Shown piece after piece: positions 1,629 through 33,113 of a DNA stretch of 64,000 nt. Origin of the DNA: an uncultured Candidatus Saccharibacteria bacterium (GTDB lineage Bacteria; Patescibacteriota; Doudnabacteria; UBA920); assembly GCA_964490395.1 (NCBI GenBank), contig CAZBAS010000001.1:147815-211814 (forward strand), written 5' to 3'. The notes under the pieces were generated by a model. It worked only from the letters and a program-made list of their open reading frames with translations. It did no database searches and was not told the DNA's origin. Numbering within the stretch: the stretch's first letter is position 1; each line of letters begins with the position of its first letter. Position numbers and translations under genes: made by a program.

Positions 1629-1659
1629 TTTCTAATATCTAATGTTAGGAGAAAGAGAT

Positions 1660-2331: not shown

Positions 2332-2343
2332 GCAGAAACCCAT

Positions 2344-14236: not shown

Positions 14237-15049
14237 ATGGCACGGAAGTACGCACATGCTAAGCACTTACCCCAAGGGGTATCACTCGAAAGCCACCAGG
14301 TAGCGTGGGATTTTGTTGCTGCCCAATATGCTGGCGGCACTGCTCTGCCTGCGTGGGGTACCAGGGGTGAGTTGCAATACGAACAAATCTTAGAAGATGT
14401 AAAAGGTAGGCGAGTATTGGAAATAGGGTTTGGTTCGGGAGATTCTATTATATATCTTATCCGCCAAGGAGCGGGCTCGGTTGTGGGGATAGACTTTAGC
14501 AAGGGTCAGCATGCCTTGGCCAGCAGCCGCATTGCACGTTCGTTTAAAAACTCACCAAAGCTTATGGCGAAGGTTGAGCTGCGGACACAGTCAATGGATT
14601 CAGAGTTGCCAGCCGGTCCGTTTGACGCTGTTATTGCTGTGTATAGTGTGGGGTGGTCAGAACAACCTGAACAGCTCTTTCGTAAGATATATACTGTTTT
14701 AAATCCGGGCGGTTATTTTTATTTTTCATGGGACCATTACCTAAGCCGAGTCGCGGAGTACGGTGAGGGAGGTGTTCGCATAACTAAAAGTTACCATGAA
14801 CCAATGCCACTCATACGAGAGGATTGGAAGGGAAGTGGTCAGATTATTGAAACGCACCAGCTCAGGCCCAGTGATTGGTTTGCTCTATTAATTAAAGCTG
14901 GTTTTGTGGTTGATGGCTTTTGGGAGCCAAAACCAAATCGTGATATTCCGTTGCAAGAAGTATATTCACAAGCATATGCAAATGAGATTGGCGTCTTGCT
15001 GCCCACATGTGTTGTGTTTAGAGCGCGGAAAGGGGGTCCCGCTTTATGA
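14237..15049 (+). CDS. class I SAM-dependent methyltransferase
   Basis: Motif I VLEIGFGSGDS. 270 aa. Confidence 0.7.
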   Translation: MARKYAHAKHLPQGVSLESHQVAWDFVAAQYAGGTALPAWGTRGELQYEQILEDVKGRRVLEIGFGSGDSIIYLIRQGAGSVVGIDFSKGQHALASSRIARSFKNSPKLMAKVELRTQSMDSELPAGPFDAVIAVYSVGWSEQPEQLFRKIYTVLNPGGYFYFSWDHYLSRVAEYGEGGVRITKSYHEPMPLIREDWKGSGQIIETHQLRPSDWFALLIKAGFVVDGFWEPKPNRDIPLQEVYSQAYANEIGVLLPTCVVFRARKGGPAL

Positions 15050-16317: not shown

Positions 16318-16920
16318 ATGGATGTAAGCACTTCAGACAAAATACGACTAACCAGATTTTACGAAGAGGCCTTGCTTAAGTATGGCCCAGACAGCGCCCA
16401 GGCTTTGCAGTGGAAAAATCGAAAGAGCCAGCAGGTACGGTTTGCCGCGCTTTCTCAGGCGGCAAACCTTGCAGGAAAGAGTGTGCTCGATGTAGGGTGC
16501 GGGGTGGGGGATTTATACAAATATCTCCAAAACTCATTTGGGCGCGTGGACTACTGCGGACTAGATGTAGTGCCTGGTATGATTGCGGCTGCAAAACAGA
16601 AATACCCGGGTGCGCGCTTTGTGCATGCAAATGTGCTAGATTTTACCGAGCAGTACGACTATGTCTTAGCATCGGGCGCGCTGACCTACAATATGCAGGG
16701 CGGCAAGGAGCTGTATTTTGAGATTATAAAACACATGTACGCTCTGGCAAAAAAGGGCGTTGCATTTAATGTGCTGGACAACGATGTCTATGCAACTGAC
16801 CACGAGTACCTTACGTACACCTACGCAGAAATAGCTGCTCTTTGCGAAACGCTCAATTGCCAATTTGTGGTTTCTACTGAGTACGAAGTAGGGGATTTCA
16901 CAGTGTTTTTGTATAAGTAG
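16318..16920 (+). CDS. class I SAM-dependent methyltransferase
   Basis: Motif I VLDVGCGVGDL. 200 aa. Confidence 0.7.
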   Translation: MDVSTSDKIRLTRFYEEALLKYGPDSAQALQWKNRKSQQVRFAALSQAANLAGKSVLDVGCGVGDLYKYLQNSFGRVDYCGLDVVPGMIAAAKQKYPGARFVHANVLDFTEQYDYVLASGALTYNMQGGKELYFEIIKHMYALAKKGVAFNVLDNDVYATDHEYLTYTYAEIAALCETLNCQFVVSTEYEVGDFTVFLYK

Positions 16921-18251: not shown

Positions 18252-18800
18252 ATGGTACGATTGTTTACACCTATGTCATTCGACCACATACTCTTTTACA
18301 AAATCAACCACTTACCGCATAACGGTTTTCTCAATGGCTTGGCCACACTAGTGAGCTACTCTACGTATTGGGGCGCAGCGTTTATGGTGCTGTGTCTTTT
18401 TAACTTCGCTATGCCAAGCATGGAGCGTAAGCTGCTCGCAAAAGCTGGGGCGCTGGCTATGCTGGTTGCTGGGTTGCTCAACGATGGAGTGTTCCACTTT
18501 TTTATTCATAGAGCGCGGCCCTTTGTAGTTCTTTCAGAGGTTGTAACAGTTGGCTATGCACCGAGCAGCTATTCATTTCCCTCGGGTCATACAGCACTTG
18601 CCTTTGCTATGGCAGCCGCATATTGTATGGTATTTCCTCATCGCCTTGAGTCGTACATCGTGGTGTGCGCCGCGCTATTGGTTGGCTTTTCTAGAATATA
18701 TATGGGAGTGCATTACCCGAGTGATGTACTCGCAGGCATGTTCTTGGGCTCTTTCTGTGGTGTAGTGTGCACTATGTTCGTGCGAAGGTATCTTCCATAA
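18252..18800 (+). CDS. PAP2-family lipid phosphatase
   Basis: KX6RP (IHRARPF), PSGH (SFPSGHT) and SRX5HX3D (SRIYMGVHYPSD) motifs. Confidence 0.7.
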   Translation: MVRLFTPMSFDHILFYKINHLPHNGFLNGLATLVSYSTYWGAAFMVLCLFNFAMPSMERKLLAKAGALAMLVAGLLNDGVFHFFIHRARPFVVLSEVVTVGYAPSSYSFPSGHTALAFAMAAAYCMVFPHRLESYIVVCAALLVGFSRIYMGVHYPSDVLAGMFLGSFCGVVCTMFVRRYLP

Positions 18801-18839
18801 TGCCACAGCGCTGTGTGATACAATAAATCATAGTTTCCT

Positions 18840-19448
18840 ATGGGTATATATACAATAAAACCAAAGTTTCAGCAGTTTCTTTCGCCCGTGACGAACATGT
18901 TTATTCGCCACAAAGTGAGCCCTACAACCATAAATGTGTGGGGTCTGCTATTGTCTCTGTGCGCCGGAGCCTGCTTATATTTTTCGCTCGAGCGACCAGT
19001 GCTTCTGCTTGCTGTGCCTGTTCTGGTATTTGTGCGCACCGCCTTTAATGCGCTCGATGGTCTTGTCTCCCGCAGTCTTGGAGTGGCTTCAAGGTTTGGG
19101 GAAGTGCTTAATGAATTTTTGGACCGCATTTCGGACGCGGCTATTTTCTTTGGGTTGGCACTCGCGCCATTCTCTTACATAGTACTTGGCAGTGTGGTCG
19201 TGATAGTTATTTTACTGAATAGCTACTTAAGTATAGTGAGTAAAGCAGCAGGCGGCTCCCGGCAATACGGGGGAGTCATGGGTAAAGCAGATCGTATGAT
19301 ATATGTAGGACTCATGTCTTTTGTGGTGTTTTTCACAAATAATACACATCTTTGGTATTATTTTTCCTGGTTTATCTTGATTGGTACGTGCATTACCTTG
19401 GTACAGCGCTATAGAGCAACTAAACGAGAACTTGCTACACATGCCTGA
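18840..19448 (+). CDS. CDP-alcohol phosphatidyltransferase
   Basis: DGLVSRSLGVASRFGEVLNEFLDRISD matches D-G-x2-A-R-x8-G-x3-D-x3-D. Confidence 0.7.
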   Translation: MGIYTIKPKFQQFLSPVTNMFIRHKVSPTTINVWGLLLSLCAGACLYFSLERPVLLLAVPVLVFVRTAFNALDGLVSRSLGVASRFGEVLNEFLDRISDAAIFFGLALAPFSYIVLGSVVVIVILLNSYLSIVSKAAGGSRQYGGVMGKADRMIYVGLMSFVVFFTNNTHLWYYFSWFILIGTCITLVQRYRATKRELATHA

Positions 19449-20397
19449 TTCAAACTTTGTAAACCCTTTTGCCAACCCAATATTTATTACTATACTTTTG
19501 CGCACCGCTGCGGTATTGATTGCTGGGTTTGTACTACTCCTGTCTGTAAAAAAGTTCAGAGCAAAAGAGTTGCTCGAGAGCAACATAGGAAAAATATACA
19601 TTGGGTGGCTTGTGCTAGCGCCGCTATACTTGCTCGGTATATTTCTGGGCGGTATTCCCTCGCTCGTAGTACTGTTTGTGCTTACTGGGCTGGCTCTTGG
19701 TGAAGTAGTTCGTTTAGCGCAATTGCCTCGTGTATATTTTGTTACGCTCCTGTTTCTTTCGGTATGGAGTATAGTAGTAGCAAGTTTCTTTTCGGGCTAT
19801 TTTTATAGTCTGCCGTTGTTTTATTTTATTGTCATTACCGGCGTTGCAATCCGTGCGAACGATGCGGCTAAGGGGTTGTATAACGCTGCTGTTTCTTTAT
19901 TTGCGTCCATATGGATAATCTTTGCCTTGAGCCATGGGGTGTTGCTCGGGCATTTGAACAATGAATTTGATACAACCAAATCGCTCCTGGTGCTTATAGT
20001 CTTCGCTACATCGCTGAGCGATATTGGCGCCTATGTATTTGGTAAGTTGTTCCATAAACTGAATTTTCTTGACCAGTATAAAATTGCGTCAAATATAAGT
20101 CCGAATAAGACCTACGTAGGTATTTTAGGTCACGTGTTAGGAGCAGCTGCGGGTATAGCCCTCGTATATTTTGCGGTGCGCGAATATTTACCAGCATATC
20201 ACTGGATAATTTTATCCGTGGTTATGGGAGTCTTTGGTCTGGTGGGAGGGCTCACTAACTCTCTCTTTAAACGGTACTACAACAGCAAAGATAGTAGCCA
20301 TCTTATCCCAGGACATGGTGGGGTGCTTGACCGCATAGACAGCATAACTCGGGTGGTAGTAGTTCTGTACTATTATGTACTACTCTTTCACAAGTAA
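19441..20397 (+). CDS. cdsA: phosphatidate cytidylyltransferase
   Basis: C-terminal signature SLFKRYYNSKDSSHLIPGHGGVLDRIDS. Start re-assigned to the ATG at 19441, which overlaps the upstream stop by 8 nt. Confidence 0.75.
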   Translation: MPDSNFVNPFANPIFITILLRTAAVLIAGFVLLLSVKKFRAKELLESNIGKIYIGWLVLAPLYLLGIFLGGIPSLVVLFVLTGLALGEVVRLAQLPRVYFVTLLFLSVWSIVVASFFSGYFYSLPLFYFIVITGVAIRANDAAKGLYNAAVSLFASIWIIFALSHGVLLGHLNNEFDTTKSLLVLIVFATSLSDIGAYVFGKLFHKLNFLDQYKIASNISPNKTYVGILGHVLGAAAGIALVYFAVREYLPAYHWIILSVVMGVFGLVGGLTNSLFKRYYNSKDSSHLIPGHGGVLDRIDSITRVVVVLYYYVLLFHK

Positions 20398-20733
20398 TGC
20401 CGTTACCACAGCAAAAGCATACGCGCCGTCGTGAGAAATGCTACAGTCTATAGATACAATGTTTTTTGTTAGTTCGGTAGATGCAAAAGAAAGATATGGT
20501 TTGCCGGTTTGTTCGTGGAGGACTTCCATATCGAGCCAGCTGCCAGCTGGTAGGCCAAGCGCCTTACCTGCGGCTTCCTTTACGGCAAATATGCCGGCTG
20601 CATGTTGGGCGTCCGGCCGCAGTAGTTCACTCTTGTGAAATATCTTTTGCACGGCGGTTGTATGTAAAAGCAGAGCAGCTACCCGTTCTACTAGGACAAT
20701 ATCGCACCCAGTACAAACACGTATAGTATTCAT
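20380..20733 (-). CDS. acpS: holo-ACP synthase (4'-phosphopantetheinyl transferase)
   Basis: GCDIVLVERV and FAVKEAAGKALG motifs. ATG at 20733; the track's TTG is at 20745. Confidence 0.7.
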   Translation of the reverse strand: MNTIRVCTGCDIVLVERVAALLLHTTAVQKIFHKSELLRPDAQHAAGIFAVKEAAGKALGLPAGSWLDMEVLHEQTGKPYLSFASTELTKNIVSIDCSISHDGAYAFAVVTALLVKE

Positions 20734-21636
20734 ATGACACCTCAAAAATTATCTGTTAGTAATCCAGCCTACTTCGACGAAAAAAGAAATAGCATAAACC
20801 AAGGTCTGCAAGCTATTTTTGGAGAAGAGCTTCAAAAATACGGTCTGGAAAAATTAGTGCACGCCATGGAGTACACGCTTATGGGGCAGGGCAGGCGTTA
20901 CCGGCCATTGCTCGCTGTAGCAGTATACGAGCTCTTTCATGCTACCAGTGACGTAGTTATACAACCTGCCTGCGCCATTGAGCTTATTCACACGTCTTCC
21001 CTTATGTTAGATGATCTTCCCTGTATGGACAATGCTACTGTCCGGCGGGGCCGTGGGGCGAGCCATGTGGTATTTGGGGAGTCTACGACCATATTGGCCA
21101 GCGCTGCGTTGTTTGCTTCTGCGTTTAAATTGTTTGCAGATATCCACTCGGTAGCCATAAACGATATTGTAGGCCAAGCAGCTGACTCCATAGGGGGGAA
21201 CGGTCTCATTAAGGGACAGTTTATAGATGTAGAGTCTTTCAATACCGTCCAAACCGTAGAAGAGCTCGATGCGTGTTATTACTTAAAAACAGCAGTGCTG
21301 TTCCAGTTGTCTGCAAAGCTCGGAGCCGTCATGGCTGAGGCAACTCCAGATCAGGTTAACCTGCTTGAGCGTATGGGCAGCGAGCTCGGGCTCGCGTACC
21401 AAGTTCGTGATGATATACTCGACGCAACACTTACATTGCAGCAGGCAGGTAAGGATGTTAAAATAGATGCAAAGAATGGCAAGCCAACCTACGTGAGCAT
21501 CTTAGGTTTGGAAGAAGCAACGCGCAGATTCCATGTCATGCTTGCTCAGCTGGAGACAACCATTGCCCTGCTCGAGAAACAAAATTTACACACATCATTT
21601 TTAAAAGATTATTTTCATAGTCTTGCACTTACATAA
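20734..21636 (+). CDS. polyprenyl diphosphate synthase (IspA/GGPPS family)
   Basis: GRRYRP, first DDxxD (MLDDLPCMDN...RRG) and second (VRDDILD) motifs. Confidence 0.75.
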   Translation: MTPQKLSVSNPAYFDEKRNSINQGLQAIFGEELQKYGLEKLVHAMEYTLMGQGRRYRPLLAVAVYELFHATSDVVIQPACAIELIHTSSLMLDDLPCMDNATVRRGRGASHVVFGESTTILASAALFASAFKLFADIHSVAINDIVGQAADSIGGNGLIKGQFIDVESFNTVQTVEELDACYYLKTAVLFQLSAKLGAVMAEATPDQVNLLERMGSELGLAYQVRDDILDATLTLQQAGKDVKIDAKNGKPTYVSILGLEEATRRFHVMLAQLETTIALLEKQNLHTSFLKDYFHSLALT

Positions 21637-21641
21637 ATACT

Positions 21642-22649
21642 ATGGCACAAGAACCATTGGAGGAGTATGTTCAAAGGGCGTATGCCGCTGGACTCAGTTC
21701 TAGTGATATTTCGTTGCAATTAGCCCAGGTAGGGTGGGGGGAAGAGCAGATTGCTGCGGCTTTGCAAAAAACTTCGATTGACGCATCTACTTCTTCCATT
21801 ACGCCGGCTCCGCACGCCCCCACCAACTCAAAGCTAGCAACATATACAACATGGATAACGTGTTTGATAATCATGCGCTTGCTACTCATCCCGTTCCAGT
21901 ATGTATTGGTCTCGCTCATACTCACTCACGACTTTTTCAATTCCGCCTACGCTTTAAATTTCAACACCTTTTCGAACTCGCTGCCGCTGCTCTGGCTTAT
22001 ACCGCTTGGCCTCTTCAGAAAGAAAGATCGCAATGCGTATGTTCTATCTATCATTTTCGCTTCGGTCTTAATGTTCCTAAACATTTTTGGACTCGCATCG
22101 TTTGAGAGCCAGCCTGCGTTTTGGTTTGTCTCGTTTATTTATGTTTTGAGCGGCGCTGCCATTGCTGCTCTGTCAATTCTCTCGCTACGACTGTTGCCAA
22201 AGAAAGTTGAGGCCCAGACAAGCCAGGTCATTGCTGTGCGGCCTTCTGGTGTAAAAATGTGGGAAATTATTTTGGGGGCTATATTTGGGCTCGCCGCGAT
22301 ACTGCCAGCGTTCAGTGGTCTTGCCGGTTCTATGGGCGATCTTATGGATAACGACATGGGCAATCCATTCTTTCCTTTTGCTGTATCATTGGCACTCGGC
22401 GCAGCATTGGGTTGGCTTTGTGCAAAAGGGTTTGCCTTTAGTATTTCTAAAAAGCAGCGAACATTTATGCTGGGCAAAGGTTTGTGGTATGGCGGACTGC
22501 TTGGTGCGGTTGCACAAGTACCACTCTATGGTTTCAGTGCTATATTGCTAATCGCCATGCCCATAGGGGCAATGATCGGCGCAGTTATTGGGCTGTTTGC
22601 CTCCGTGCTTGTGGGATATCTTATGGAGAAGAGTATAGTCGCACGGTAA
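21642..22649 (+). CDS. hypothetical polytopic membrane protein
   Basis: Roughly 80-aa soluble N-terminus followed by multiple Gly-rich TM helices. Confidence 0.35.
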   Translation: MAQEPLEEYVQRAYAAGLSSSDISLQLAQVGWGEEQIAAALQKTSIDASTSSITPAPHAPTNSKLATYTTWITCLIIMRLLLIPFQYVLVSLILTHDFFNSAYALNFNTFSNSLPLLWLIPLGLFRKKDRNAYVLSIIFASVLMFLNIFGLASFESQPAFWFVSFIYVLSGAAIAALSILSLRLLPKKVEAQTSQVIAVRPSGVKMWEIILGAIFGLAAILPAFSGLAGSMGDLMDNDMGNPFFPFAVSLALGAALGWLCAKGFAFSISKKQRTFMLGKGLWYGGLLGAVAQVPLYGFSAILLIAMPIGAMIGAVIGLFASVLVGYLMEKSIVAR

Positions 22650-22652
22650 ATT

Positions 22653-23462
22653 ATGAGCTATGCATTCTTCTGTGAACTAAGTGCCTTGGTGTCGGTCCTG
22701 TATATGTTTGTATACAGCTATAAAAAGCGCGAACTCGCGCTTTTTTGCTTTTTACTATTTGATGCATGGGTCTTTGAATGGGCAATTTTGCATATGCTGC
22801 ACGAAGTCACGTATAGCAACTCATTTTCTACAACTCTCGGAGGTGTTCCTCTTGCCATAATCTGCGGTTGGGCAATATTGCTCTACAGCCTACACGACCA
22901 GTTTCGTCATTCAAAAAGTATCTATAAGAACGCTCTTTCTGTGGCCGTGCTCATGGTGCTTTTGGACTTAGTGCTAGAGCCGGTAGCCGTATATGTAGGT
23001 CTGTGGCAGTGGGGCCATGCTGTAGGGTACTATGGACTGCCTTACAATAATTTCTTTGGCTGGTTCCTATATGCGTTTTTGGTTGTGTTTGCCTTGCGTA
23101 AATTTGGTGCCAGCAGGGGCTTGGCCAAATATATGTATATGTTTAGTTTTATTACCATACTAGGCCTTATACTTGGCCTGCTTTGGTATGTAGTGCCCGT
23201 GGTTGCCCAGTCAGTGGCGTGGTGGTGTGGTTTCGCCGGCATATTGTTACACGTTGTGCGCCAACAGAGCGAGTTACCCAAAAGGCTATTGGGTCTGATG
23301 CTGCTTTTCCCGCTGCTGATATTTCTTACTTCATTTGCAGTCACGGCCCTGCATGCAGAGCAATTTTCCAGTGTGCAGATAGGTGTTTCTCTTTTATGCT
23401 TTATGTGTTGGACATGGCTCATGTTAAGGGGCCGTGCAAAGCCCGTTACTCAGCGATCGTAA
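22653..23462 (+). CDS. hypothetical polytopic membrane protein (possibly lycopene-cyclase-domain/carotenoid-type)
   Basis: 269 aa, 7-8 TM. LDLVLEPVAVYVGLWQW segment. Family assignment is speculative. Confidence 0.3.
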   Translation: MSYAFFCELSALVSVLYMFVYSYKKRELALFCFLLFDAWVFEWAILHMLHEVTYSNSFSTTLGGVPLAIICGWAILLYSLHDQFRHSKSIYKNALSVAVLMVLLDLVLEPVAVYVGLWQWGHAVGYYGLPYNNFFGWFLYAFLVVFALRKFGASRGLAKYMYMFSFITILGLILGLLWYVVPVVAQSVAWWCGFAGILLHVVRQQSELPKRLLGLMLLFPLLIFLTSFAVTALHAEQFSSVQIGVSLLCFMCWTWLMLRGRAKPVTQRS

Positions 23463-24540
23463 ACTTATATACATTGCTATAGCTCGCGGTCATTTCTCTC
23501 TTTGTAAGCTGCGCGGATGCTTCCGGGAAATATATAAACTGCGGTCGAAGCGCGGGTGAAGGAAAAACCTGCGGGGCAAAACTGCGGTAAGAGATAAGCG
23601 CCCCTGGTGCTGCAGTGCGTATAACTGCCTGCCAGAGAGCTTCTTGCCTTGCCTTTGATAAAAATTCTACTACATCGGATAAGGAAAATTTTGTTATAGA
23701 ACGCTCGGGTGTGCGATTGAGCGCTGTGGTGAGCGTGCCATCTACAATGGTTATGGCAGCTGCCCGCGTTTGTAAGAGCGCAAAGTTTTCTTCCTTTAGG
23801 TAGTCTGGACAATGCTGGTTGTCTCTATAGTAGCCAAAAAAGATGAAATGCCAGAAGAAGTTATCTCTCATGGCAACTGTACTAAAGAGTTCACGCTGCT
23901 TAGTTTTATAGAGATCTTTCAGAAAAAATTTGCCTGCGCGCATGCAGTAATACATCTGCCGTGGATGCACACCATAAGGCCACATAGTAGGGGTAGGGAT
24001 GTGCGCGTAAACAAAATTCCACAAGCGTGGCTCTATCTGTGCTGTGTAAAAGTCTCTTTGTGCTGCTGTAGAAGTCATGTCCGCAAAAGTTCGTAGGGTG
24101 TCGCTACCTACTGCTCGGTATATCCACTTACGGAGAAGGGCAAGCCGCGCTAGGGCCCCTACTGTATAGAGCCCTTTTTTAAATATGTGGATATGTGCAT
24201 CCCAAAATTTTTGGCTTTCAGGCGGTAGCGCAGGCCGCAAGCTATCGGTATACAGCTGGGTGTAGGCTGCATGTGTTCCCACTCCAAAGAGCTGCCAAAA
24301 TTCTGCATACGGGAGGGTTTGTACTGCTGCGAGTTTAAGTCTGAGCAAGTGATTTTGCGCGGGGTTGGCATCTACAGCGATAATGCTTTTGGGGCCGGCA
24401 AGAGCGGCATGTAAAATATTGCACCCACCAGACGTGAGCGCAACCAATGTGTCTGCTTCCGTTAGTTCTAAGAGTTCTTTGTCTACAGAAAAATCTTCCC
24501 AGGTTTGGTTATAGACAATCTTTGGCTCGGCCAATTTCAT
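23446..24540 (-). CDS. DUF3419 / BtaA-like protein (SAM:diacylglycerol 3-amino-3-carboxypropyl transferase family), tentative
   Basis: 364 aa. N-terminal IVYNQTWEDFSVDKELL and TSGGCNILHAAL match, as I remember them, the BtaA family N-terminus. Sits inside the lipid cluster. Confidence 0.4.
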   Translation of the reverse strand: MKLAEPKIVYNQTWEDFSVDKELLELTEADTLVALTSGGCNILHAALAGPKSIIAVDANPAQNHLLRLKLAAVQTLPYAEFWQLFGVGTHAAYTQLYTDSLRPALPPESQKFWDAHIHIFKKGLYTVGALARLALLRKWIYRAVGSDTLRTFADMTSTAAQRDFYTAQIEPRLWNFVYAHIPTPTMWPYGVHPRQMYYCMRAGKFFLKDLYKTKQRELFSTVAMRDNFFWHFIFFGYYRDNQHCPDYLKEENFALLQTRAAAITIVDGTLTTALNRTPERSITKFSLSDVVEFLSKARQEALWQAVIRTAAPGALISYRSFAPQVFPSPALRPQFIYFPEASAQLTKREMTASYSNVYKFTIAE

Positions 24541-24569
24541 ACAAGCTGCTCTTGCGATATACTTAGTGT

Positions 24570-25151
24570 ATGCATTATACAGCGCTTGCGCAGTTTGGAA
24601 AATCTAAATTTGGAAAGGGCCTGGCCTTTGTGTGGGGGCTGGCAGAAGGGTTGCTCTTTTTTGTAGTCCCGGATGTATATTTGAGTTTTATCGCTTTGTT
24701 TAGTGTGGCCGGAGGGCTGGTAAGTGTGGCGTACGCGTTGCTTGGCTCACTGTGTAGCGCGGTGATTGTTTACGCGCTCGCGCCCTTTATGGGCGGCATG
24801 TACCATAGAATACTGCTGGCCATACCTGGTATTTCTGAGGCCATGCTTCGTACTGTAACAACCGGGCTTGCGCAGCACGGGGTCCAAAATATTATTGCGG
24901 GTCCATTTAGCGGCATACCATATAAGATTTACTCTGTAGAAGCAGCGCTCCAGCACCTTCCCATTGGCTCGTTCTTGCTGTGGTCTATTCCAGCGCGGCT
25001 TGAGCGCATGCTACCAGTAACCCTGGTCGCACTCGTGCTCGGGTATGTGTTCCAAAAAAATATAAAGAAGTATACTACCTACTGGATACTCGGTTTTTTG
25101 TTGGTATGGGCGCTTATCTATATACAGTACTATTATTCGCTTGGGCAGTAA
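24570..25151 (+). CDS. hypothetical membrane protein (DedA/VTT-like?)
   Basis: 193 aa, 4-5 TM. LLFFVVPDVYLSF resembles the VTT-domain entry motif. Low confidence. Confidence 0.3.
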   Translation: MHYTALAQFGKSKFGKGLAFVWGLAEGLLFFVVPDVYLSFIALFSVAGGLVSVAYALLGSLCSAVIVYALAPFMGGMYHRILLAIPGISEAMLRTVTTGLAQHGVQNIIAGPFSGIPYKIYSVEAALQHLPIGSFLLWSIPARLERMLPVTLVALVLGYVFQKNIKKYTTYWILGFLLVWALIYIQYYYSLGQ

Positions 25152-26436
25152 TTCTAGAAATTATTGGATTGCGTTTTCCCGACGCTGTTTTGAGAAGTTG
25201 CTCTTCTGTTACTTGATCTATGTGTACTGTTGTTCCCAAGAGTCGCTCAAGGCGGCTTTTTATGTCAGTGACACCGTCTTTCGAAAGGGCGTGCTTGCTT
25301 ACTACTTGCATGCGGACTACATCTGCCGACTCCTGTATAAGGCAGAAATCGAGAATGTCTATGTGGCCGGTAAGTAGTAAGTCGTATACCGTATCAAGGA
25401 GGTATGCAGATGTTAGTGTACGGCCATGGGTGAATGTAAATGCATCATTCTTTCTTCCGAGGAACGTGTTTAACACGCGGCCGGTGCGGCCACATGCGCA
25501 GGTGTTGTTTGCATCAATTATTCCCAGGTCACCTTGTTCGTAGCGGATAAATGGCATGGCAAAATTATGCAAGTTTGTGCCAACCAGGTTGCTCGCAGTT
25601 CCTGCGGTTACTGTTTCTATATAACTAATATCTTCCCAGAGGTGGTAGCTCCCTTGTTCACACTCCGCTGCTATCCAGCCTAGTTCTTCTGAAGAATATT
25701 CATCAAGTACCGGACAATTAAAAAACTTCGCCAGGGTAGCGCGCTGCGCTTTGGTTGAAAGTTCGGAGCCAACGCTTATGAGTTTAAGTCGCAAGCTTTG
25801 TGCTTCATCTGCGCTGAGGTGCTGCATGAGGGCGAGCAGGTGAGAGGGGTATGAGCAGATAATAGAAGGTTTTAGCGACAGTATGCTCCTTGCAGTATTT
25901 GCGAGTTCGTTTAGTGTTGGAATAAAGTACGACTTATACAGTCCAAGGAACGACGCTGCTGGGTAAGGCGAAGTATAAATATAGAGACATGTGTCCCATG
26001 GTTTATACGTACCGAGCGAGTTAAGTATGCGAAACCTTCCTAGCGCGTAGCTCCAGGTATCTTTGGGGTTATGCACAATGGTTATAACTTTGCCCGATGA
26101 CCCAGAACTTACCGATGGTATGCATTCACTTTGGTTAACGGTGTCTGAGATGGCCCCTTCAGGGAATGCGTCAATAATTTCCTGTTTGGTTACCGTAGGG
26201 AATTTTTCAAGATCGCTGAGACTGGCAAAGTCTTCCGGACTTACTCCAGCATCCTGGTATTTCCTTCGATAGAGTTCTGTGGTGGAATACGCATGCGCGA
26301 GCAATTTTTTTATTTGCTTTTCTTGATAGGCTTTCGTTGCTGCTGAGCTTCGCCAAGGCCCATGATAAAACCACGGAGCGTGTAGTACCGCCCTGGCTAT
26401 GACTTGTATATATTCAGCCGGAGTGTACGATCTCAT
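25114..26436 (-). CDS. PaaK/F390-synthetase-like adenylate-forming enzyme
   Basis: 440 aa. SSGSSGKVITIV (TSGTTGKP-like) P-loop. ATGA overlap with the upstream fusion gene. Confidence 0.5.
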   Translation of the reverse strand: MRSYTPAEYIQVIARAVLHAPWFYHGPWRSSAATKAYQEKQIKKLLAHAYSTTELYRRKYQDAGVSPEDFASLSDLEKFPTVTKQEIIDAFPEGAISDTVNQSECIPSVSSGSSGKVITIVHNPKDTWSYALGRFRILNSLGTYKPWDTCLYIYTSPYPAASFLGLYKSYFIPTLNELANTARSILSLKPSIICSYPSHLLALMQHLSADEAQSLRLKLISVGSELSTKAQRATLAKFFNCPVLDEYSSEELGWIAAECEQGSYHLWEDISYIETVTAGTASNLVGTNLHNFAMPFIRYEQGDLGIIDANNTCACGRTGRVLNTFLGRKNDAFTFTHGRTLTSAYLLDTVYDLLLTGHIDILDFCLIQESADVVRMQVVSKHALSKDGVTDIKSRLERLLGTTVHIDQVTEEQLLKTASGKRNPIISRITAQANNSTVYR

Positions 26437-28931
26437 AAAGTGGCTACAGCACGCTGAATAAGTTTGGTAATTTCAATATACGAAGCATCTGCTGGTATGT
26501 GCACTGGTTTTCCAAATGTAATATGCGCCGTGCCTTTCGTGGGTAGGGTAGCGCCTCGTGGTAAAATGTGGAAGTTTCCCGATATTTTAATGGGCACCAC
26601 AGGCACTCCCATTTCCTGGGCAATTATACCAATGCCTTTTTTAAATTCGCCTAGCTGCCCAGCTTGACTCCTTGTGCCCTCTGGGTATATGAGCACAGAA
26701 TGCCCGGCATTGAGTAAACTGCCCACATGGCCCAAGCTCTCTCGCACGTTTCCGTCTCTGTCGAGGGGGAATGCGTTAAAAAGTAGCTGCGCCCAGAAGG
26801 CTGTAAATGGGTTTTTAAAAAAATAATCTTTAGCAGCTGCCACACAGAGGTTAGCTCGTATGTGCTGCGGGAGCAAACGGAATATGGTGGGAGTGTCTAA
26901 GTGGCTCTCGTGGTTTGCCACAAGCAGAAATGGACCTCGCGGTAAGTTTGTGGCCGCTCCCTGCGTTCCTTGTAAGGTTTGGAATGACTGGATGGCTAAA
27001 AACAAAAACCATTGCATAACTGCGCGAATTGGTTTTACTATGTGCCATCGTGGCCAGGAAGCTATGTGAATGGCTTTGCTTCTTTGTTCGGAGTGCTGTA
27101 GGAGCTGCATAAGATCGCCAACTGTGCTGGTTTGGGATATGCTCGTTTCTGCTATTTCTATGCCTAACTCATCTTCTATTCTGGAGACTAGCTCTAGTCG
27201 CTTAATAGAGTCTAAATGCAGATCTGTAACAAAATTTGCATTTGGTGCTATGGCCGCGCTCTCCATACCAGTTATTTCGCTTATAATGTGGGTGAGCGGG
27301 TCGGTGCTGACGGGTTTTTGCTGCGCAGATATTGGCGTGGGAGAGTGTTCTTCTGCAATAAGAAATGCTGCTACTTCAGGCCTAAGGATTTTTTTTGTTG
27401 TGGTCCGGGGAAAGTCTGCGAGCGGCCACAATACTAGTTTTTGAATTTGCTGGTGAGATGCTAGGTGGTTGTTTGCGCGCTGCATGATTTCTTCAGGGGA
27501 CGGGGTGTCTGTATCTGTTAACACTGCCGCAACGAGTAAAGTGGATGTGTCTTTTTTTATACCGCACACTACGGCTTCTTTTACTCCTCCAAATTCTCTT
27601 AGTGCTTGTTCTATGTCTTCAGGGTATATGTTCATACCCGAGTCGCTTATAATGGTGTTCTTTTTTCTTCCTTGTATATATACATACCCGTCTGCATCTA
27701 TGGCGCCTACATCGCCAGAGTGAAACCAGCCATTGGCGAACGCGTTTGCAGTGGCCTGCTCATTTTGAAAATATTCACGGGTAAGGTTTGGTCCCTGGAG
27801 CAACAACTCTCCATCGTCCGCGACCTGTACAGATATACCGGGTAGTACCCGGCCAACAGAACGAGGCTTATGAGCCTGGAGCGAACTTGCAGTAATGAGG
27901 GGCGATGCTTCGGTGAGGCCGTATCCCTGAAGGGGGACAATGCCTAGCCTGGTCCAAAACAGCTCAAGGCTTACATCGAGGGGTGCGCCGCCCACGTAAA
28001 ATTCTTTCAGAGATAGACCGAGCTTGGTTCTTATTCGGTGGAAAAGTAGCCTACGTATGGCTACGGGAAAACGTTCTGCCCTGCTGAGTGCCTGCGAAAA
28101 TTGCGTTGTTTTGTGGGCGGCCTCCACAGTTCGCATGATTGAGTTTTTAAGCAATTGCAGCACTGCAGGAACGCACACTATGGAAGTTATGCGTTCGTTT
28201 TGCAGTGCTGCAACCATATACTTTGGTTTTATGGTGTAGGGGTACACAATGCTTGCTCCCCAGAATAAGGGACTAAAAAGACCACCGGTTTGTTCCAGCA
28301 TGTGGCTCAACGGTACCAAGGAAAGGAATTGGTGAGTACTGCTCAGTGGCGCCACCTGTGAAAGCATATATACATCGGAGCAGACGTTTGCATGGGTGAG
28401 CACGACTCCTTTTGGCTCACCCGTACTTCCCGAGCTGAAGACAATTTCTAGTGTATCGTTTGGCTCAATGGTGGGCACGCTAGCAATGGCCGCACTGGGC
28501 AAGCTATCAAAAGGAATATCCTCAATATATACAATGGGTGTATAAGGGCTTGGTGTGAGCGGGGAAAGCGTGTGCGAAGTAAAAATAATTTTTGCACGTG
28601 TCGTACGCGCAATTGTATCTATGAACTCCGGAGTTGAGTTACTGTCCAGGGGCACTACTACCACGCCGAGACTTGCACACGCAAAAAAGATGCAAGACCA
28701 CTCAGGGGAGTTGGGTGTGCGCAGTATAACTGTATCTCCCTTGCGTAGCTGTTGCTCGGCAAGAAAACTGATTGTGCTATCAACTTTTTGTTTTAGCTCG
28801 GTATATGTCCAAACAATTCTTCGAAATTTTCGGTGTTGTATAAATGCTACTTCGGTACCAAAGGCATTGCATGCATTAAGAAGTAGTGCGGGTACTGTAT
28901 GGGGCTGTGTCATATAGGTAGTATATAACAT
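26433..28931 (-). CDS. tri-domain fusion: acyl-AMP ligase (acyl-ACP synthetase) / acyl carrier protein / 1-acylglycerol-3-phosphate O-acyltransferase (PlsC)
   Basis: 832 aa. AMP-binding motifs SSGSTGEPKGV, YGLTE, SGD and GRKKNTII. ACP-like DLHLDSIKRLELVSRIEDELGIEI with a DS phosphopantetheine-attachment Ser. PlsC motifs NHESHLD, FPLDRD, YPEGTRS and VPVVPI. Confidence 0.7.
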   Translation of the reverse strand: MLYTTYMTQPHTVPALLLNACNAFGTEVAFIQHRKFRRIVWTYTELKQKVDSTISFLAEQQLRKGDTVILRTPNSPEWSCIFFACASLGVVVVPLDSNSTPEFIDTIARTTRAKIIFTSHTLSPLTPSPYTPIVYIEDIPFDSLPSAAIASVPTIEPNDTLEIVFSSGSTGEPKGVVLTHANVCSDVYMLSQVAPLSSTHQFLSLVPLSHMLEQTGGLFSPLFWGASIVYPYTIKPKYMVAALQNERITSIVCVPAVLQLLKNSIMRTVEAAHKTTQFSQALSRAERFPVAIRRLLFHRIRTKLGLSLKEFYVGGAPLDVSLELFWTRLGIVPLQGYGLTEASPLITASSLQAHKPRSVGRVLPGISVQVADDGELLLQGPNLTREYFQNEQATANAFANGWFHSGDVGAIDADGYVYIQGRKKNTIISDSGMNIYPEDIEQALREFGGVKEAVVCGIKKDTSTLLVAAVLTDTDTPSPEEIMQRANNHLASHQQIQKLVLWPLADFPRTTTKKILRPEVAAFLIAEEHSPTPISAQQKPVSTDPLTHIISEITGMESAAIAPNANFVTDLHLDSIKRLELVSRIEDELGIEIAETSISQTSTVGDLMQLLQHSEQRSKAIHIASWPRWHIVKPIRAVMQWFLFLAIQSFQTLQGTQGAATNLPRGPFLLVANHESHLDTPTIFRLLPQHIRANLCVAAAKDYFFKNPFTAFWAQLLFNAFPLDRDGNVRESLGHVGSLLNAGHSVLIYPEGTRSQAGQLGEFKKGIGIIAQEMGVPVVPIKISGNFHILPRGATLPTKGTAHITFGKPVHIPADASYIEITKLIQRAVATL

Positions 28932-29451: not shown

Positions 29452-29522
29452 TGTTCTATATATCTTGTCGTGAAAAGTCTTATATGGGTATATACGATGC
29501 AGTCATAGATTAGTAACAAAAT

Positions 29523-29545
29523 AAAAGGTGCTAGGCACCTTTTAT
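29523..29545. terminator. terminator hairpin, family copy 3
   Basis: AAAAGGTGCTAGGCACCTTTTATTTT, downstream of zwf on the minus strand. Confidence 0.6.
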
Positions 29546-29673
29546 TTTCGTTTTATTATAGACATACCGCCGTACTTGCTTGGTTTGCGCAGGGATGCGC
29601 CAGAGAGGTGCATGCGTTTCCGATTTTTTACTTCTCGTTTTTCTGCCTTAAGATTTGTTTTCGTTTTTCTCAT
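29542..29673 (-). CDS. candidate small, highly basic protein (43 aa, MRKTKTNLKAEKREVKNRKRMHLSGASLRKPSKYGGMSIIKRK)
   Basis: Not in the track because it is under 60 aa. It begins 17 nt after the zwf stop and ends exactly at the terminator hairpin. K/R make up 18 of 43 residues, a ribosomal-protein-like composition. No clear SD. Confidence 0.25.
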   Translation of the reverse strand: MRKTKTNLKAEKREVKNRKRMHLSGASLRKPSKYGGMSIIKRK

Positions 29674-29690: not shown

Positions 29691-31037
29691 TTATATACTT
29701 TGCGCGAGTACTTCATCCGGCGTACTACCCGGTGAGTAAGAAGCAAGGTCGTTACCAGACATTTCCCAGGAGCGTTGGATAGGGTCGAGAATTTTCCACG
29801 ACTCAAGGACTTCTTCGCCAGAGGTAAATAGAGCGTGGTCGGACTTTATGGCACTGAAGAGTACTTGTCCATATGGTTCTGGGAGTCCTAGTTCGCGGTC
29901 GCCGAATACAAACTTTACTTTATGTTGGGTAAGCTCATGTTCGTACCCGGGCCGCTTTGCCCAAATGCATAACTCAACGCCTTCGTCTGGCTGCAAACGG
30001 AGTGTTAGCTCCTCTGGCTCTTCACCTGCATCTTTTTTATAAAAAATTCGGATCTCAGTGTATCTACTTTTAAGAGCTTTACCAGTCGTGAGCACAATGG
30101 GCACGCCTGTCCATTTTTCATCTTGCGATTCTAAACGAACAGATGCAAATGTCTCAACCATGCTTTGAGGGTTTTGTACTTCTTCTCTGTAACCTGTATA
30201 TTGCCCGCGGTATGCGAAGTCCGTAATTGCATTCGCGCCGGTGGGGAAGCGTAGTTGCTGTAGCGCTTTAAGCCGTAGCTCTGGCACTTGTTGCATGTTG
30301 CCTTTTGGGGGGGTGTCCATGAGTGCGAGGGCCGCCAGCTGGAGTAGGTGGCTTTGCATAAAGTCTCGGAGGGCACCGGTCTGTTCGTAAAAAAGCGCTC
30401 GGCCTTCTATGCCTATGGCCTCACTAGCGGTAATTTCAATGCGCTCTATGAACTCTTTGTTCCAGGTTCGTTTAAACAGTGGGTTGTATTCCCGAAATAT
30501 AACTAGGTTCTGAGCGGTGTCCCGCGCAAGATAGTGGTCTATGCGGTATATTTGTTCTGAAGTGAAATAGCGATCTATGTGTTCTATAAGATCCTTGGCA
30601 CTTTCCAAATCTGTGCCAAATGGCTTTTCAAGTAAAAGTTTTGTCTGAGGTTTCTTTGCTAAACCGGAGGTGCCCAAGTGCTCTATAATTGGTTTTGAAA
30701 CCTGTGGCGGTACTGAGAGGTAAAAGAGTCGCTGCGGCTGTTGACTAAAAGTATCTCCGAGGGTTTGCAAATAGTTCGTTAGCTTTCCATAATCTTCCTC
30801 ACTTGTTAAGTCCATTTGAAACAATTCAGTGTGTTCGGTAATATATGCGGCATGTTCTGTTTTACTTAGCAATGACTCAACAGTTACATCGCTTTTTCGG
30901 GTAATACCTACAATGCGAAACTCCTCTGGTAGTGCTCCGGCAAGTGCCATTTTACCAATAGCAGGCAACAGCTTTCGCTGCGCTAAGTCACCGGTTATAC
31001 CAATGATTATGAGGATGGTAGGGGAGGCTGAATTCAT
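29691..31037 (-). CDS. zwf: glucose-6-phosphate 1-dehydrogenase
   Basis: ILIIIGITGDLAQRKLLPAI matches the G6PD N-terminal signature GASGDLAKRKLxPAL. RIDHYLARD motif. Confidence 0.85.
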   Translation of the reverse strand: MNSASPTILIIIGITGDLAQRKLLPAIGKMALAGALPEEFRIVGITRKSDVTVESLLSKTEHAAYITEHTELFQMDLTSEEDYGKLTNYLQTLGDTFSQQPQRLFYLSVPPQVSKPIIEHLGTSGLAKKPQTKLLLEKPFGTDLESAKDLIEHIDRYFTSEQIYRIDHYLARDTAQNLVIFREYNPLFKRTWNKEFIERIEITASEAIGIEGRALFYEQTGALRDFMQSHLLQLAALALMDTPPKGNMQQVPELRLKALQQLRFPTGANAITDFAYRGQYTGYREEVQNPQSMVETFASVRLESQDEKWTGVPIVLTTGKALKSRYTEIRIFYKKDAGEEPEELTLRLQPDEGVELCIWAKRPGYEHELTQHKVKFVFGDRELGLPEPYGQVLFSAIKSDHALFTSGEEVLESWKILDPIQRSWEMSGNDLASYSPGSTPDEVLAQSI

Positions 31038-31058
31038 AGAATGAGTAATAATAGAAAT

Positions 31059-31141
31059 GCCTAATACCTAATTTCTAATGTGTGATGAAAGACGGGAGAA
31101 TATTCCGGACATTAGATATTAGGAATTGGAAATTAGACATT
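31059..31141. repeat. family-A palindromic element (CTAAT heptads), copy A2
   Basis: GCCTAATACCTAATTTCTAATG, a 30-nt spacer containing GAATATTC, then ATTAGATATTAGGAATTGGAAATTAGACATT. Upstream of zwf. Confidence 0.7.
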
Positions 31142-31154
31142 GTGTCTTTAACAC

Positions 31155-32057
31155 TTACTTATTTATCTTATGGCCGCCAAAGGCGTTGCGCATGGCCGCA
31201 AGAAGTTTAGTGGCAAAGTTAGTGCGGCCTTGTTGTGACGCCAGTCGTACGTCAAACGAGGCTTGTATGGAAGGCATGTCTATATTCATGTCTTTTGCTA
31301 CTTCAAGCGTCCATCGTGCTTCCCCAGACTCAGCTACATACCCGTCTATACCCGCAAGCTCTGGGTTTTCTTTGAGTGCGTCCCGGCTCAGTTCGTTGAG
31401 CCAGGAGGTAATAACGCTATGGTGTTGCCAGACTTCTCCAGCAGCAGCGAGGTCTAAGTTTTTATATGGACCTTCTTTCAAAAAGCGATAGCCCTCAGCA
31501 AGGCTTTGCATCATGCCATACTCAATGGCGTTGTGGGTCATCTTTACAAAATGGCCGCTACCGCTGTCTCCAAAGTGGTGGTAGGCGCCCTCGGGTAGTG
31601 CAAGCGTTTGTAAGACTGGTTCCACTGTTCTAAAACTCTCTGCGTCACCGCCGGCCATCATGGAAAAACCATGTGCGTACCCCCATATGCCCCCACTTGT
31701 TCCTACGTCGAGGAGGAGGGAGCCATGTTCTGCGACTCGCTCTGCGCGAATTTTAGTTTGGCGAAAGTCCGAATTGCCGCCGTCTATAATAATACTCTTG
31801 GCTGGGACGAGCGCCAGCCAGGCAGCCAGCTCCGCGTCTACTACATCCGCAGGAACCATGAGCCACAGCACTATTTGGTCGCCGCCAAATGCCGCAACCA
31901 CTTCTTCTTTGCTGTAGGCAGGGGTTGCCCCTATGGCCTTCATTTCATCTATTGGCTCTTTACTTCTGTTGTGCGCGATAACGGTATGTCCGCCTTCTTG
32001 TAGCTTGCGGGCAATTTGCATGCCCATTCGTCCGAGGCCTGATATTGCTATTTTCAT
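31155..32057 (-). CDS. gnd: 6-phosphogluconate dehydrogenase (decarboxylating), short ~300-aa form
   Basis: MKIAISGLGRMGMQIARKL Rossmann N-terminus. Confidence 0.8.
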   Translation of the reverse strand: MKIAISGLGRMGMQIARKLQEGGHTVIAHNRSKEPIDEMKAIGATPAYSKEEVVAAFGGDQIVLWLMVPADVVDAELAAWLALVPAKSIIIDGGNSDFRQTKIRAERVAEHGSLLLDVGTSGGIWGYAHGFSMMAGGDAESFRTVEPVLQTLALPEGAYHHFGDSGSGHFVKMTHNAIEYGMMQSLAEGYRFLKEGPYKNLDLAAAGEVWQHHSVITSWLNELSRDALKENPELAGIDGYVAESGEARWTLEVAKDMNIDMPSIQASFDVRLASQQGRTNFATKLLAAMRNAFGGHKINK

Positions 32058-32218
32058 AAAAGTTTATATTTAAATGGTTATGGCATTAAGGTCTTATCAT
32101 TGCCTGAAGTCATCGACGAAGCAATCTAATAATAATTATGTACAAATGTTAGATTGTCACGATCCGATCCAGGCATCGAATCTCGCAATGACAGAGCAGA
32201 GAAAGATGGCTCTATTTT

Positions 32219-32884: not shown

Positions 32885-32933
32885 ACGTATATAGGTATTC
32901 TACAAGGTATTATTGGAGTTGGCTATTGGCAGT

Positions 32934-33059
32934 CATGAAAACATATAAGCATACAAACATGTAAACAAAAAGCATGTAAACATATAAACATGGCTCCCGA
33001 AGAGGCTCTGCCTTTTGTTTAAATGCTTACATGCTTGCATGTTTGTATATCCTGCTTCA
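32934..33059. promoter_or_regulatory. large imperfect inverted repeat in the pgl/glgP divergent intergenic region (candidate operator)
   Basis: The left arm ATACAAACATGTAAACAAAAAGCATGTAAACAT pairs with the right arm ATGCTTACATGCTTGCATGTTTGTAT. Both are built from CATGTAAAC-type motifs. Confidence 0.45.
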
Positions 33060-33113
33060 TTAGGCGCCTAGGGCCATCTTTGGTATGCTTACTTATACAG
33101 AACAATACACTTT

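Follow-up and report, generated by a model that had tools for sequence, protein, structure and literature searches.

A conserved block of lipid-related genes in an uncultured, probably Patescibacteria-type bacterium joins a predicted fatty-acid salvage module to a rare BtaA-family core

We describe a block of lipid-related genes at positions 18252-28931 of a 64-kb stretch of DNA (the window) from an uncultured and probably ultra-small bacterium, probably of candidate phyla radiation (CPR)/Patescibacteria type. Families were assigned by Pfam and NCBIfam profile searches, with scores in bits read against the curated cutoff of each model. The block contains 11 credible genes, whose neighbours overlap or sit 0-40 bases apart. 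An earlier, sequence-only reading had counted 12 consecutive genes; its observation that lipid-related genes cluster here was sound, its count was one too high. The block consists of two modules, a salvage and head-group set and a six-gene core made up of the PaaK-like ligase, the VTT-like protein (on the opposite strand), the DUF3419 protein, the CruF-like protein, the 7-helix protein and the prenyl synthase. The genes, with protein lengths in amino acids (aa), are as follows.

18252-18800, plus strand: PAP2-family lipid phosphate phosphatase, 182 aa (Pfam PAP2, 83 bits)
18840-19448, plus strand: CDP-alcohol phosphatidyltransferase of PIPS/AIPS type, 202 aa (Pfam CDP-OH_P_transf, 31 bits)
19441-20397, plus strand: CdsA, phosphatidate cytidylyltransferase, 318 aa (Pfam CTP_transf_1, 139 bits)
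20380-20733, minus strand: AcpS, holo-carrier-protein synthase, 117 aa (Pfam ACPS, 34 bits)
20734-21636, plus strand: short-chain trans-prenyl diphosphate synthase, 300 aa (Pfam polyprenyl_synt, 173 bits)
21642-22649, plus strand: clade-restricted polytopic membrane protein, 335 aa (N-terminal three-helix domain, then about seven transmembrane helices)
22653-23462, plus strand: CruF-like (Caroten_synth) polytopic membrane protein, 269 aa (Pfam Caroten_synth, 52 bits)
23446-24540, minus strand: BtaA-family (DUF3419) transferase dependent on S-adenosylmethionine (SAM), 364 aa (Pfam DUF3419, 274 bits)
24570-25151, plus strand: distant VTT/DedA-like membrane protein, 193 aa (Pfam VTT_dom, 23 bits, below cutoff)
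25114-26436, minus strand: PaaK-like adenylate-forming enzyme, 440 aa (matches solved PaaK structures)
26433-28913, minus strand: fusion of AMP-binding, PP-binding and Acyltransferase domains, 826 aa (Pfam, 225, 46 and 89 bits)

Profile annotation of the open reading frames (ORFs) in the block left the lipid families named from the letters alone in place: all eight (PAP2, CDP-OH_P_transf, CdsA, AcpS, prenyl synthase, DUF3419, PaaK-like and the fusion) were reproduced by Pfam and NCBIfam. Three polytopic proteins had been listed as being of unknown function, and here the picture changed, with the protein at 22653-23462 joining the CruF family and that at 24570-25151 emerging as distantly VTT/DedA-like. 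Only the protein at 21642-22649 stays without a family.

The same 11 genes, in unchanged order and on unchanged strands, are present on two metagenomic contigs, with 32-90% amino-acid identity overall: the Logan contig L087 (66-90% to the window) and L088 (32-78%). The flanks of L088 differ at the fusion side, where GrpB and an unrelated 139-aa protein are encoded; on the PAP2 side L088 has only an unidentified 70-aa ORF fragment, so that the flank comparison rests on the fusion side. Since the order and boundaries of the block are kept while its flanks change, the block is under selection as a block. It is a conserved unit, clustered beyond chance.

The six-gene core recurs, intact and with its order and strands kept, in a second lineage, represented by L090 (a 94.7-kb JGI contig), L105 and the ENA contig of protein P0131. 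The recurrence of the whole block in L087 and L088 and of the core in these three contigs bears out the earlier proposal that this is a real lipid gene cluster. In the second lineage the PaaK-like gene is divergent from a PlsY-CdsA pair rather than following the fusion, and the PlsY protein passes the TIGR00023 cutoff. As the neighbour is the fusion here and PlsY there, the PaaK-like gene abuts a glycerolipid acyltransferase in every complete core. Complete instances number six, all of them with a CdsA gene, and two further contigs, both short, are partial and retain the divergent VTT-like/DUF3419 pair (L089, from a 0.1-um groundwater fraction, and L101). The core is rare, with about ten representatives, and appears to be new, being undescribed in the literature searched.

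The largest protein of the block, the 826-aa fusion, is identical to database protein P0001. Long-chain fatty-acyl-CoA synthetases are the closest matches of its adenylating domain (FadD13, E 3.9e-46), its carrier domain is AcpP-like (50 bits), and AGP_acyltrn and the acyltransferase half of Aas come nearest to its C-terminal domain. Among 17 homologues of the fusion, the P-loop (SGSTGEPKG), the QGYGLTE motif, the carrier serine (LDS(I)), the HX4D box (NHxSHxD) and the EGTR box (PEGTR) are invariant, as is the phosphopantetheine site of the carrier, D568-S569; read by eye, the acyltransferase motifs of the window protein are NHESHLD and PEGTR. To judge by its motifs, the fusion lacks nothing for the activation of a free fatty acid, its attachment to the built-in carrier domain and its transfer to a glycerolipid acceptor. 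AcpS scores as a phosphopantetheinyl transferase with both Pfam ACPS (34 bits against a cutoff of 25) and TIGR00556 (48 bits against 45.35), and presumably primes the carrier domain of the fusion.

The fusion architecture is widespread, with 6330 proteins matching at E<=1e-10; in the best 120 of these matches, about 112 show all three domains and the rest are without a recorded carrier-domain match. A profile scan of contigs with the fusion alignment, which includes the generic AMP-binding motifs, returned, among the matches listed, mostly Acidobacteria and Clostridia at 26-36% identity. The nearest named relative (46% identity) comes from Candidatus Harrisonbacteria, of the Patescibacteria/Parcubacteria group, and the CPR-type relatives as a set (L001 and L002 from Harrisonbacteria, with L084, L085 and L086) are 42-46% identical to the window fusion. 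In four CPR loci (L001, L084, L085 and L086) the fusion gene overlaps the AcpS gene that follows it by 4 nt. This pair is all that is conserved of the block genes in L084-L086. In L001, CdsA and a CDP-alcohol phosphatidyltransferase of the same subfamily adjoin the pair (64-66% identical to the window proteins, 64% for CdsA), and in Harrisonbacteria the stop codon of a 196-aa VTT-like homologue overlaps the fusion start. No core gene lies near the fusion in non-CPR genomes with this architecture (e.g. Acidobacteria, Nitrosomonas and the 3.8-Mb genome of L003); in L003 a gene of the major facilitator superfamily (MFS) directly follows the fusion homologue.

The Harrisonbacteria locus (L001 9414-14233, GCA_002773415.1) is a compact version of the salvage module, in which the VTT-like, fusion and AcpS genes overlap in that order and CdsA and the CDP-alcohol phosphatidyltransferase lie on the other strand. 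This genome belongs to the Crystal Geyser CG10 sample series, and the lipid study of Crystal Geyser reported no enzymes related to acyl carrier protein (ACP) in CPR genomes (PMC7242380).

Three genes would supply the head-group steps. CdsA is a clear member of its family (CTP_transf_1, 139 bits against a cutoff of 24), although it falls short of the E. coli-type equivalog (88 bits against 385). Its ORF was listed from a TTG at 19381; an ATG at 19441 overlaps the upstream stop by 8 nt and is probably the true start, because the L087 and L088 orthologues are 317-318 aa long. The CDP-alcohol phosphatidyltransferase scores 108 bits with the NCBIfam model for archaetidylinositol phosphate synthase (AIPS; cutoff 180), 76 bits with that for phosphatidylinositol phosphate synthase (PIPS; cutoff 170) and 24 bits with pgsA, and its best solved structure is the M. 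tuberculosis PIP synthase (6h53, E 2.8e-12). The four signature aspartates are treated as invariant across the CDP-alcohol phosphatidyltransferase family. Aligned to M. tuberculosis PgsA1, the window enzyme reads NxxDGxxSRx8Gx3Nx3D and so departs from the full D1xxD2GxxARx8Gx3D3x3D4 signature. The asparagines in place of the first and third aspartates are kept in four CPR sequences that are otherwise 66-88% identical (window 18840-19448, L087 10382-10990, L088 10925-11527 and L001 13634-14233). No inositol-1-phosphate synthase (Ino1) was seen among the window ORFs scanned. For PAP2, the best NCBIfam matches are undecaprenyl-diphosphatases and PgpB, all below cutoff; its PSGH and SRx5Hx3D motifs are intact, and L087 and L088 keep them too. 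Candidate substrates are a phospholipid phosphate (of phosphatidylinositol phosphate or phosphatidylglycerol phosphate (PGP) type), phosphatidate or undecaprenyl diphosphate.

Within the core, the prenyl synthase, 7-helix and CruF-like genes are separated by only 3-5 bases. The prenyl synthase scores 228 bits with the NCBIfam farnesyl diphosphate (FPP) synthase model FPPsyn and 191 bits with CrtE, both below cutoff. Chain length in FPP synthases is set by a Tyr/Phe 'floor'. All five orthologues of the prenyl synthase have Ser/Ala at positions -4 and -5 before DDLPCMD, and these small residues at the chain-length positions lead us to predict a product of C20 or longer; the enzyme probably makes geranylgeranyl diphosphate (GGPP, C20) or a longer chain. 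The 335-aa 7-helix protein has only 17 representatives in 1.84 billion proteins, and a word-indexed search returned two close relatives only. An AlphaFold2 model built from an 11-sequence alignment reached a pLDDT of 76.5 (a single-sequence model, at 57.6, was too poor); it gave no informative fold match, and the protein has no prenyltransferase motif. The CruF-like protein, kept in all six complete clusters, belongs to the Caroten_synth family (cutoff 25), whereas it remains at 23-40 bits with the NCBIfam CruF equivalogs (cutoffs 155-400). It may act as a hydratase on the terminal double bond of an isoprenoid.

The DUF3419 protein matches its family over the full length (cutoff 28) and conserves the N-terminal SAM-site motifs TSGGCN and VDxNPxQ. 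Aligned over its full length with the BtaA of a canonical btaA-btaB operon (L104), it shows 34% identity (E 2e-51). It has only nine close homologues; beyond these, its identity to other DUF3419 proteins, many labelled BtaA at source, is 26-37%. That this subfamily is locked to prenyl synthase, CruF-like and PaaK-like genes had escaped the earlier reading. The adjacent VTT-like protein shows a weak VTT_dom match that recurs in 5/6 of the orthologues (best E 6.2e-5), and it is homologous to the 196-aa Harrisonbacteria protein (hhalign probability 96%, E 4.7e-9; hmmsearch E 2.3e-9). A profile search of PDB sequences with the VTT-like and CruF-like alignments gave no match. We regard the VTT-like protein as a candidate lipid flippase or scramblase.

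The PaaK-like ligase shares its fold family with solved PaaK structures (E 7.7e-23), although it scores 104 against the 646 of the NCBIfam PaaK equivalog and is also below cutoff with the DVU_1553, FlxY and F390-related models. Five orthologues carry the P-loop SSGSSGK, the hinge RYxQGD, CxCGR and GKRN with the terminal lysine. In the window its start codon overlaps the stop codon of the fusion (ATGA).

Every enzyme family in the block is known, and the system is therefore not categorically new. The closest parallel to the fusion is ElbD of Myxococcus xanthus, a multidomain ether-lipid enzyme with reductase, acyl-CoA-synthetase-like, ACP and AGPAT domains. Like ElbD, the window fusion has adenylating, carrier and AGPAT-type acyltransferase domains in one polypeptide, all three recognised by profile; unlike ElbD, it has no reductase (FAR/NAD-binding) domain and no elbA/B/C/E, epimerase/dehydratase or HAD neighbours. 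For want of the reductase domain and the elb partners we call it ElbD-like rather than ElbD, and its pairing with AcpS and with genes for phospholipid head groups leads us to expect ester lipids, not ether lipids. As far as the literature searched shows, this architecture has been characterised only through ElbD. ElbD-like homologues lacking the FAR domain occur in other phyla, where they are unstudied (PMC9131029).

In chemistry, the fusion is predicted to resemble Aas/LplT of E. coli and chlamydial AasC, with an ATP-activated fatty acid, a phosphopantetheine thioester and transfer to a lysophospholipid, and NCBIfam Aas models match both of its halves. The Aas equivalogs themselves are not reached (PRK08633, 174 bits against 1221; PRK08043, 25 bits, on residues ~622-826 alone, against 886). 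The domain order is also reversed, the acyltransferase being N-terminal in Aas and C-terminal in the fusion, and the carrier is built in, whereas Aas uses free ACP; it is thus not borrowed from type II fatty-acid synthesis (FASII). In E. coli, aas is paired with lplT. The fusion is likewise accompanied by the gene of a membrane protein, VTT-like in the window and in Harrisonbacteria and MFS in L003; LplT is an MFS transporter, whereas the window partner is VTT/DedA-like.

Similar comparisons can be drawn for the other enzymes. Measured against the BtaA/BtaB pathway to the betaine lipid DGTS (Rhodobacter, Sinorhizobium; BTA1 in algae), the window DUF3419 protein is a full-length BtaA homologue with SAM-site motifs, but it has no BtaB beside it and its subfamily is tied into the core together with prenyl synthase, CruF-like and PaaK-like genes; the lipid it acts on may be something other than diacylglycerol. 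The PIPS/AIPS enzymes (M. tuberculosis PgsA1, Renibacterium PIPS, archaeal AIPS) are the best profile and structure matches of the window transferase, whose gene lies between those of a lipid phosphatase and CdsA, as expected for such an operon, although its scores and its two asparagines set it apart. CruF hydratases (Deinococcus, cyanobacteria, haloarchaea) share a Pfam family with the CruF-like protein, encoded two genes downstream of a GGPP-type synthase; because no carotenoid backbone genes are present, it more probably acts on a C20 prenyl chain or a prenylated lipid. Relative to the literature searched, three elements appear to be new: the fusion-AcpS(-VTT-like) unit in CPR, the Asn-substituted PIPS-like subfamily and the core that links BtaA-like, isoprenoid and adenylating enzymes.

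We postulate that the block is a lipid-assembly unit of two cooperating modules in an uncultured, probably CPR/Patescibacteria-type bacterium, a picture to which we give an even chance. Family memberships, intact catalytic motifs, gene overlaps and the conservation of block and core are its observed basis. From them we infer the substrates, the order of the steps, the role of a flippase and the link between the isoprenoid trio and the BtaA-like enzyme. In the salvage and head-group module, the fusion would adenylate a free, scavenged fatty acid, thioesterify it to its own carrier domain, to which AcpS would have added phosphopantetheine, and hand the acyl chain through its PlsC-type domain to a lyso-glycerolipid or lysophosphatidate. 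CdsA would convert the phosphatidate to CDP-diacylglycerol, the PIPS-like transferase would attach a phosphorylated alcohol (of inositol-phosphate or glycerol-phosphate type), and PAP2 would strip the terminal phosphate and/or yield diacylglycerol from phosphatidate; the three together would complete an anionic phospholipid. A VTT-like gene is linked to the fusion in two distant lineages, and we propose that the VTT/DedA-like protein delivers the lipid acceptor to the fusion by carrying or flipping it through the membrane, the part that LplT plays for Aas in E. coli. The route from scavenged fatty acids to phospholipid that the sequence-only reading had put forward gains support in that the fusion motifs are complete, the fusion and AcpS genes overlap in CPR relatives, the block is conserved and no fab, acc or free ACP gene was seen among the window ORFs scanned.

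The core would add a second, non-standard lipid. Its BtaA-family enzyme would move the 3-amino-3-carboxypropyl group of SAM onto a lipid hydroxyl, the acceptor being either diacylglycerol or a C20 isoprenoid that the prenyl synthase, the 7-helix protein and the CruF-like hydratase would together make and hydroxylate, and the outcome would be a phosphorus-free lipid of homoserine type. The PaaK-like ligase might feed a second adenylated acid to the neighbouring acyltransferase (the fusion here, PlsY in the sister lineage). In the lineage with PlsY it could fill the acyl-activating step that, with no PlsX, has been noted as missing from CPR genomes (PMC7242380). Each of these substrate assignments, taken singly, is considerably more doubtful than the overall picture. 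In its boldest form the core would be one pathway to an undescribed lipid class, a phosphorus-free homoserine-type lipid on or with a hydroxylated C20 isoprenoid that certain CPR bacteria make themselves, with the PaaK-like enzyme as the missing acyl activation for PlsY, or for a carrier-domain acyltransferase, where PlsX and FASII are absent. We consider this rather unlikely.

Several observations weigh against the picture of a lipid-assembly block. The functions of the block proteins, and of their close relatives, are predictions from family membership, and the assignment of the host to the CPR draws on best hits and gene content only. The VTT-like protein is sub-threshold for its family (Pfam VTT_dom, cutoff 33.9), and the CDP-alcohol phosphatidyltransferase is below every NCBIfam cutoff, with asparagine at two of its four signature Asp positions. 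PAP2 and the prenyl synthase could serve undecaprenyl-phosphate metabolism. The strand changes five times along the block, giving six transcription units on alternating strands. No sn-1 glycerol-3-phosphate acyltransferase was recognised in the block and no PlsY in the window, and the absence of fab, acc and free ACP genes among the ORFs scanned holds for the 64-kb window only. Finally, BtaB is present in none of the six clusters, and tblastn found none in the window, so that a true betaine lipid is not supported. Of the earlier suggestion of betaine lipids, the BtaA homologue therefore stands and the missing BtaB orthologue leaves the rest unsupported. GpsA was not found in the block, nor isoprenoid-precursor genes in the window, and the earlier suggestion of a self-contained route finds no support here. 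Two methyltransferase genes located 1.3-3.2 kb upstream of the block (14237-15049 and 16318-16920) were considered as BtaB candidates and rejected, as they show only generic class-I SAM methyltransferase likeness (pairwise E 4e-3 and 3e-4).

The most ordinary explanation is one of housekeeping, in which phosphatidylglycerol is the product of CdsA, a PgsA-like transferase and a PGP phosphatase, cell-wall synthesis draws on the prenyl synthase and PAP2 through the undecaprenyl-phosphate cycle, and the DUF3419, PaaK-like, CruF-like and membrane-protein genes are unrelated neighbours in a dense small genome. It would account for the undecaprenyl-diphosphatases and PgpB as top NCBIfam matches of PAP2, for the FPP synthase subfamily as top match of the prenyl synthase, for the five strand switches and for the loci L084-L086, which keep only fusion-AcpS. 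It sits poorly with L088, in which the order and orientation of all 11 genes survive at 32-78% identity between other flanks, with the intact core beside a different acyltransferase partner in the second lineage, and with the 3-5-base spacing of the prenyl synthase, 7-helix and CruF-like genes. In addition, the small chain-length residues in all prenyl synthase orthologues are unlike those of FPP synthase, and the CDP-alcohol phosphatidyltransferase scores far better with PIPS/AIPS than with PgsA. We therefore regard housekeeping as unlikely. The same trio of prenyl synthase, 7-helix and CruF-like genes might alternatively be a carotenoid pathway of bacterioruberin or hydroxylated-carotenoid type, with the rest incidental. 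Neither the block nor the window ORFs scanned yielded SQS_PSY (CrtB), a CrtI/CrtD-type desaturase, a UbiA-type elongase or lyeJ, the CruF-like protein reaches only ~40 bits where the CruF equivalogs require 155-400, and the trio is constantly tied to BtaA-like, PaaK-like and glycerolipid genes. A CrtE-like FARM region two genes upstream of the Caroten_synth protein does favour carotenoids, as do the cruF, lyeJ and crtD homologues carried by Lake Baikal Patescibacteria, where they are reported as unclustered (PMC9948471). A carotenoid cluster was rejected for having no CrtB or CrtI in the block or among the ORFs scanned, and we think such a pathway decidedly unlikely.

The PaaK-like ligase raises a further alternative, in which an unusual acid, aryl or other, passes through adenylation and the carrier domain to be joined by an ester bond to a lysolipid, giving a specialised pigment or lipid, in the manner of aryl polyenes, flexirubins or xanthomonadins. 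The protein matches FlxY, the flexirubin ligase (E 5e-24), as well as F390-related models, and its gene is translationally coupled to that of a carrier-plus-acyltransferase protein; on the other hand, the ligase of the sister lineage stands beside PlsY-CdsA with no carrier protein nearby, and the block and window hold no ketosynthase, reductase or dehydratase genes. An aryl-polyene-type cluster was rejected on the missing ketosynthase, and a pathway of this kind is very unlikely. Most improbable of all, in our judgement, are archaeal-type or mixed isoprenoid glycerolipids, for which GGPP would go into ether lipids, with CdsA in the place of a CDP-archaeol-type synthase and the transferase in that of an archaetidylinositol-phosphate synthase. 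Such a pathway was rejected because the block has no glycerol-1-phosphate dehydrogenase (G1PDH), geranylgeranylglyceryl phosphate synthase (GGGPS) or UbiA-type digeranylgeranylglyceryl phosphate synthase (DGGGPS). The prenyl synthase of GGPP type, the archaeal AIPS model as best NCBIfam match of the transferase (108 bits) and a weak CarS match of CdsA (E 2.4e-4) point towards it, but CdsA is strongly of the bacterial family at 139 bits, the 7-helix protein lacks a prenyltransferase motif or fold match, and the largest enzyme handles acyl chains via its carrier and PlsC domains.

A lipid-assembly block of the kind we postulate would matter for the CPR/Patescibacteria, a group that accounts for much of bacterial diversity. 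Most descriptions deny them the capacity for membrane-lipid synthesis, and the origin of their membranes is an open question (PMC7242380). A CPR-enriched cell fraction yielded acylglycerol lipids rich in lysolipids, all with betaine head groups, and the same study reported finding no ACP-related enzymes in its CPR genomes (Probst et al., PMC7242380). The block bears directly on both reports (PMC7242380). It offers concrete candidates for the rebuilding of glycerolipids from scavenged fatty acids or lysolipids in CPR cells, including an acyltransferase with its own ACP, paired with AcpS, in a group in which, reportedly, no ACP-dependent enzymes had been identified. Its BtaA-family enzyme could relate to the betaine-type lysolipids of CPR-rich fractions, and the fixed linkage of isoprenoid, SAM-dependent and adenylating enzymes in the core predicts a lipid that has yet to be described.

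Some features of the arrangement and surroundings of the block deserve mention. The start codons of AcpS (minus strand) and the prenyl synthase (plus strand) stand back to back as CATATG at 20731-20736, with zero intergenic bases. The spacing is also zero in L087 (9096/9097) and is 66 bp in L088. As the two starts abut, the promoter of each gene must lie within the coding sequence of the other. Promoter-like sites in the block show no excess (21, against 19.7 in shuffled sequence), and Rfam and tRNA scans gave a single tRNA-Glu, located outside the block, and nothing else. The flanking genes are unrelated to the block: MsrB, a methyltransferase and DinB upstream, and a small secreted protein, glucose-6-phosphate dehydrogenase (G6PD), 6-phosphogluconate dehydrogenase (6PGD) and 6-phosphogluconolactonase downstream. 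Between the G6PD gene and the small secreted protein gene, which lies upstream of the fusion, a strong, perfect 14-bp hairpin with A- and T-run flanks (AAAATAAAAGGTGC..GCACCTTTTATTTT) occupies 29518-29548 and looks like a bidirectional terminator at the downstream edge of the last transcription unit of the block.

Elsewhere the window contains nucleotide-salvage, pentose-phosphate and glycogen genes and many small orphan membrane proteins, a content that, with no fab or acc genes among the ORFs scanned, is in keeping with a genome of CPR type. A second cluster, for sugar metabolism, extends over 29691-36449 and encodes G6PD, 6PGD and 6-phosphogluconolactonase, the oxidative branch of the pentose-phosphate pathway, followed by an alpha-glucan phosphorylase-like and a glycogen synthase-like protein; its last three genes were identified only by reading their translations. 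Reading of the translation alone likewise revealed, at 8422-10251, a 609-aa secreted protein with a tandem-duplicated Cys-rich module of ~115 aa (FVCPDGQVESGRVEREGAIRCVPCP...ALFICG) and Gly/Ser/Pro-rich linkers between the copies. The proteins at 10347-11075, which has no Pfam match, and 38847-39668 are membrane-anchored paralogues that share a C-terminal domain of ~110 aa (…NCSGIG…DALxEKRYK…). Finally, a nucleotide-salvage run at 15-4014 comprises two adjacent dCTP-deaminase-like ORFs, a dUTPase-like and a thymidylate-kinase-like ORF, all identified by eye, and a ThyX-family protein that is unusually long, at 556 aa, and has two Thy1 stretches.

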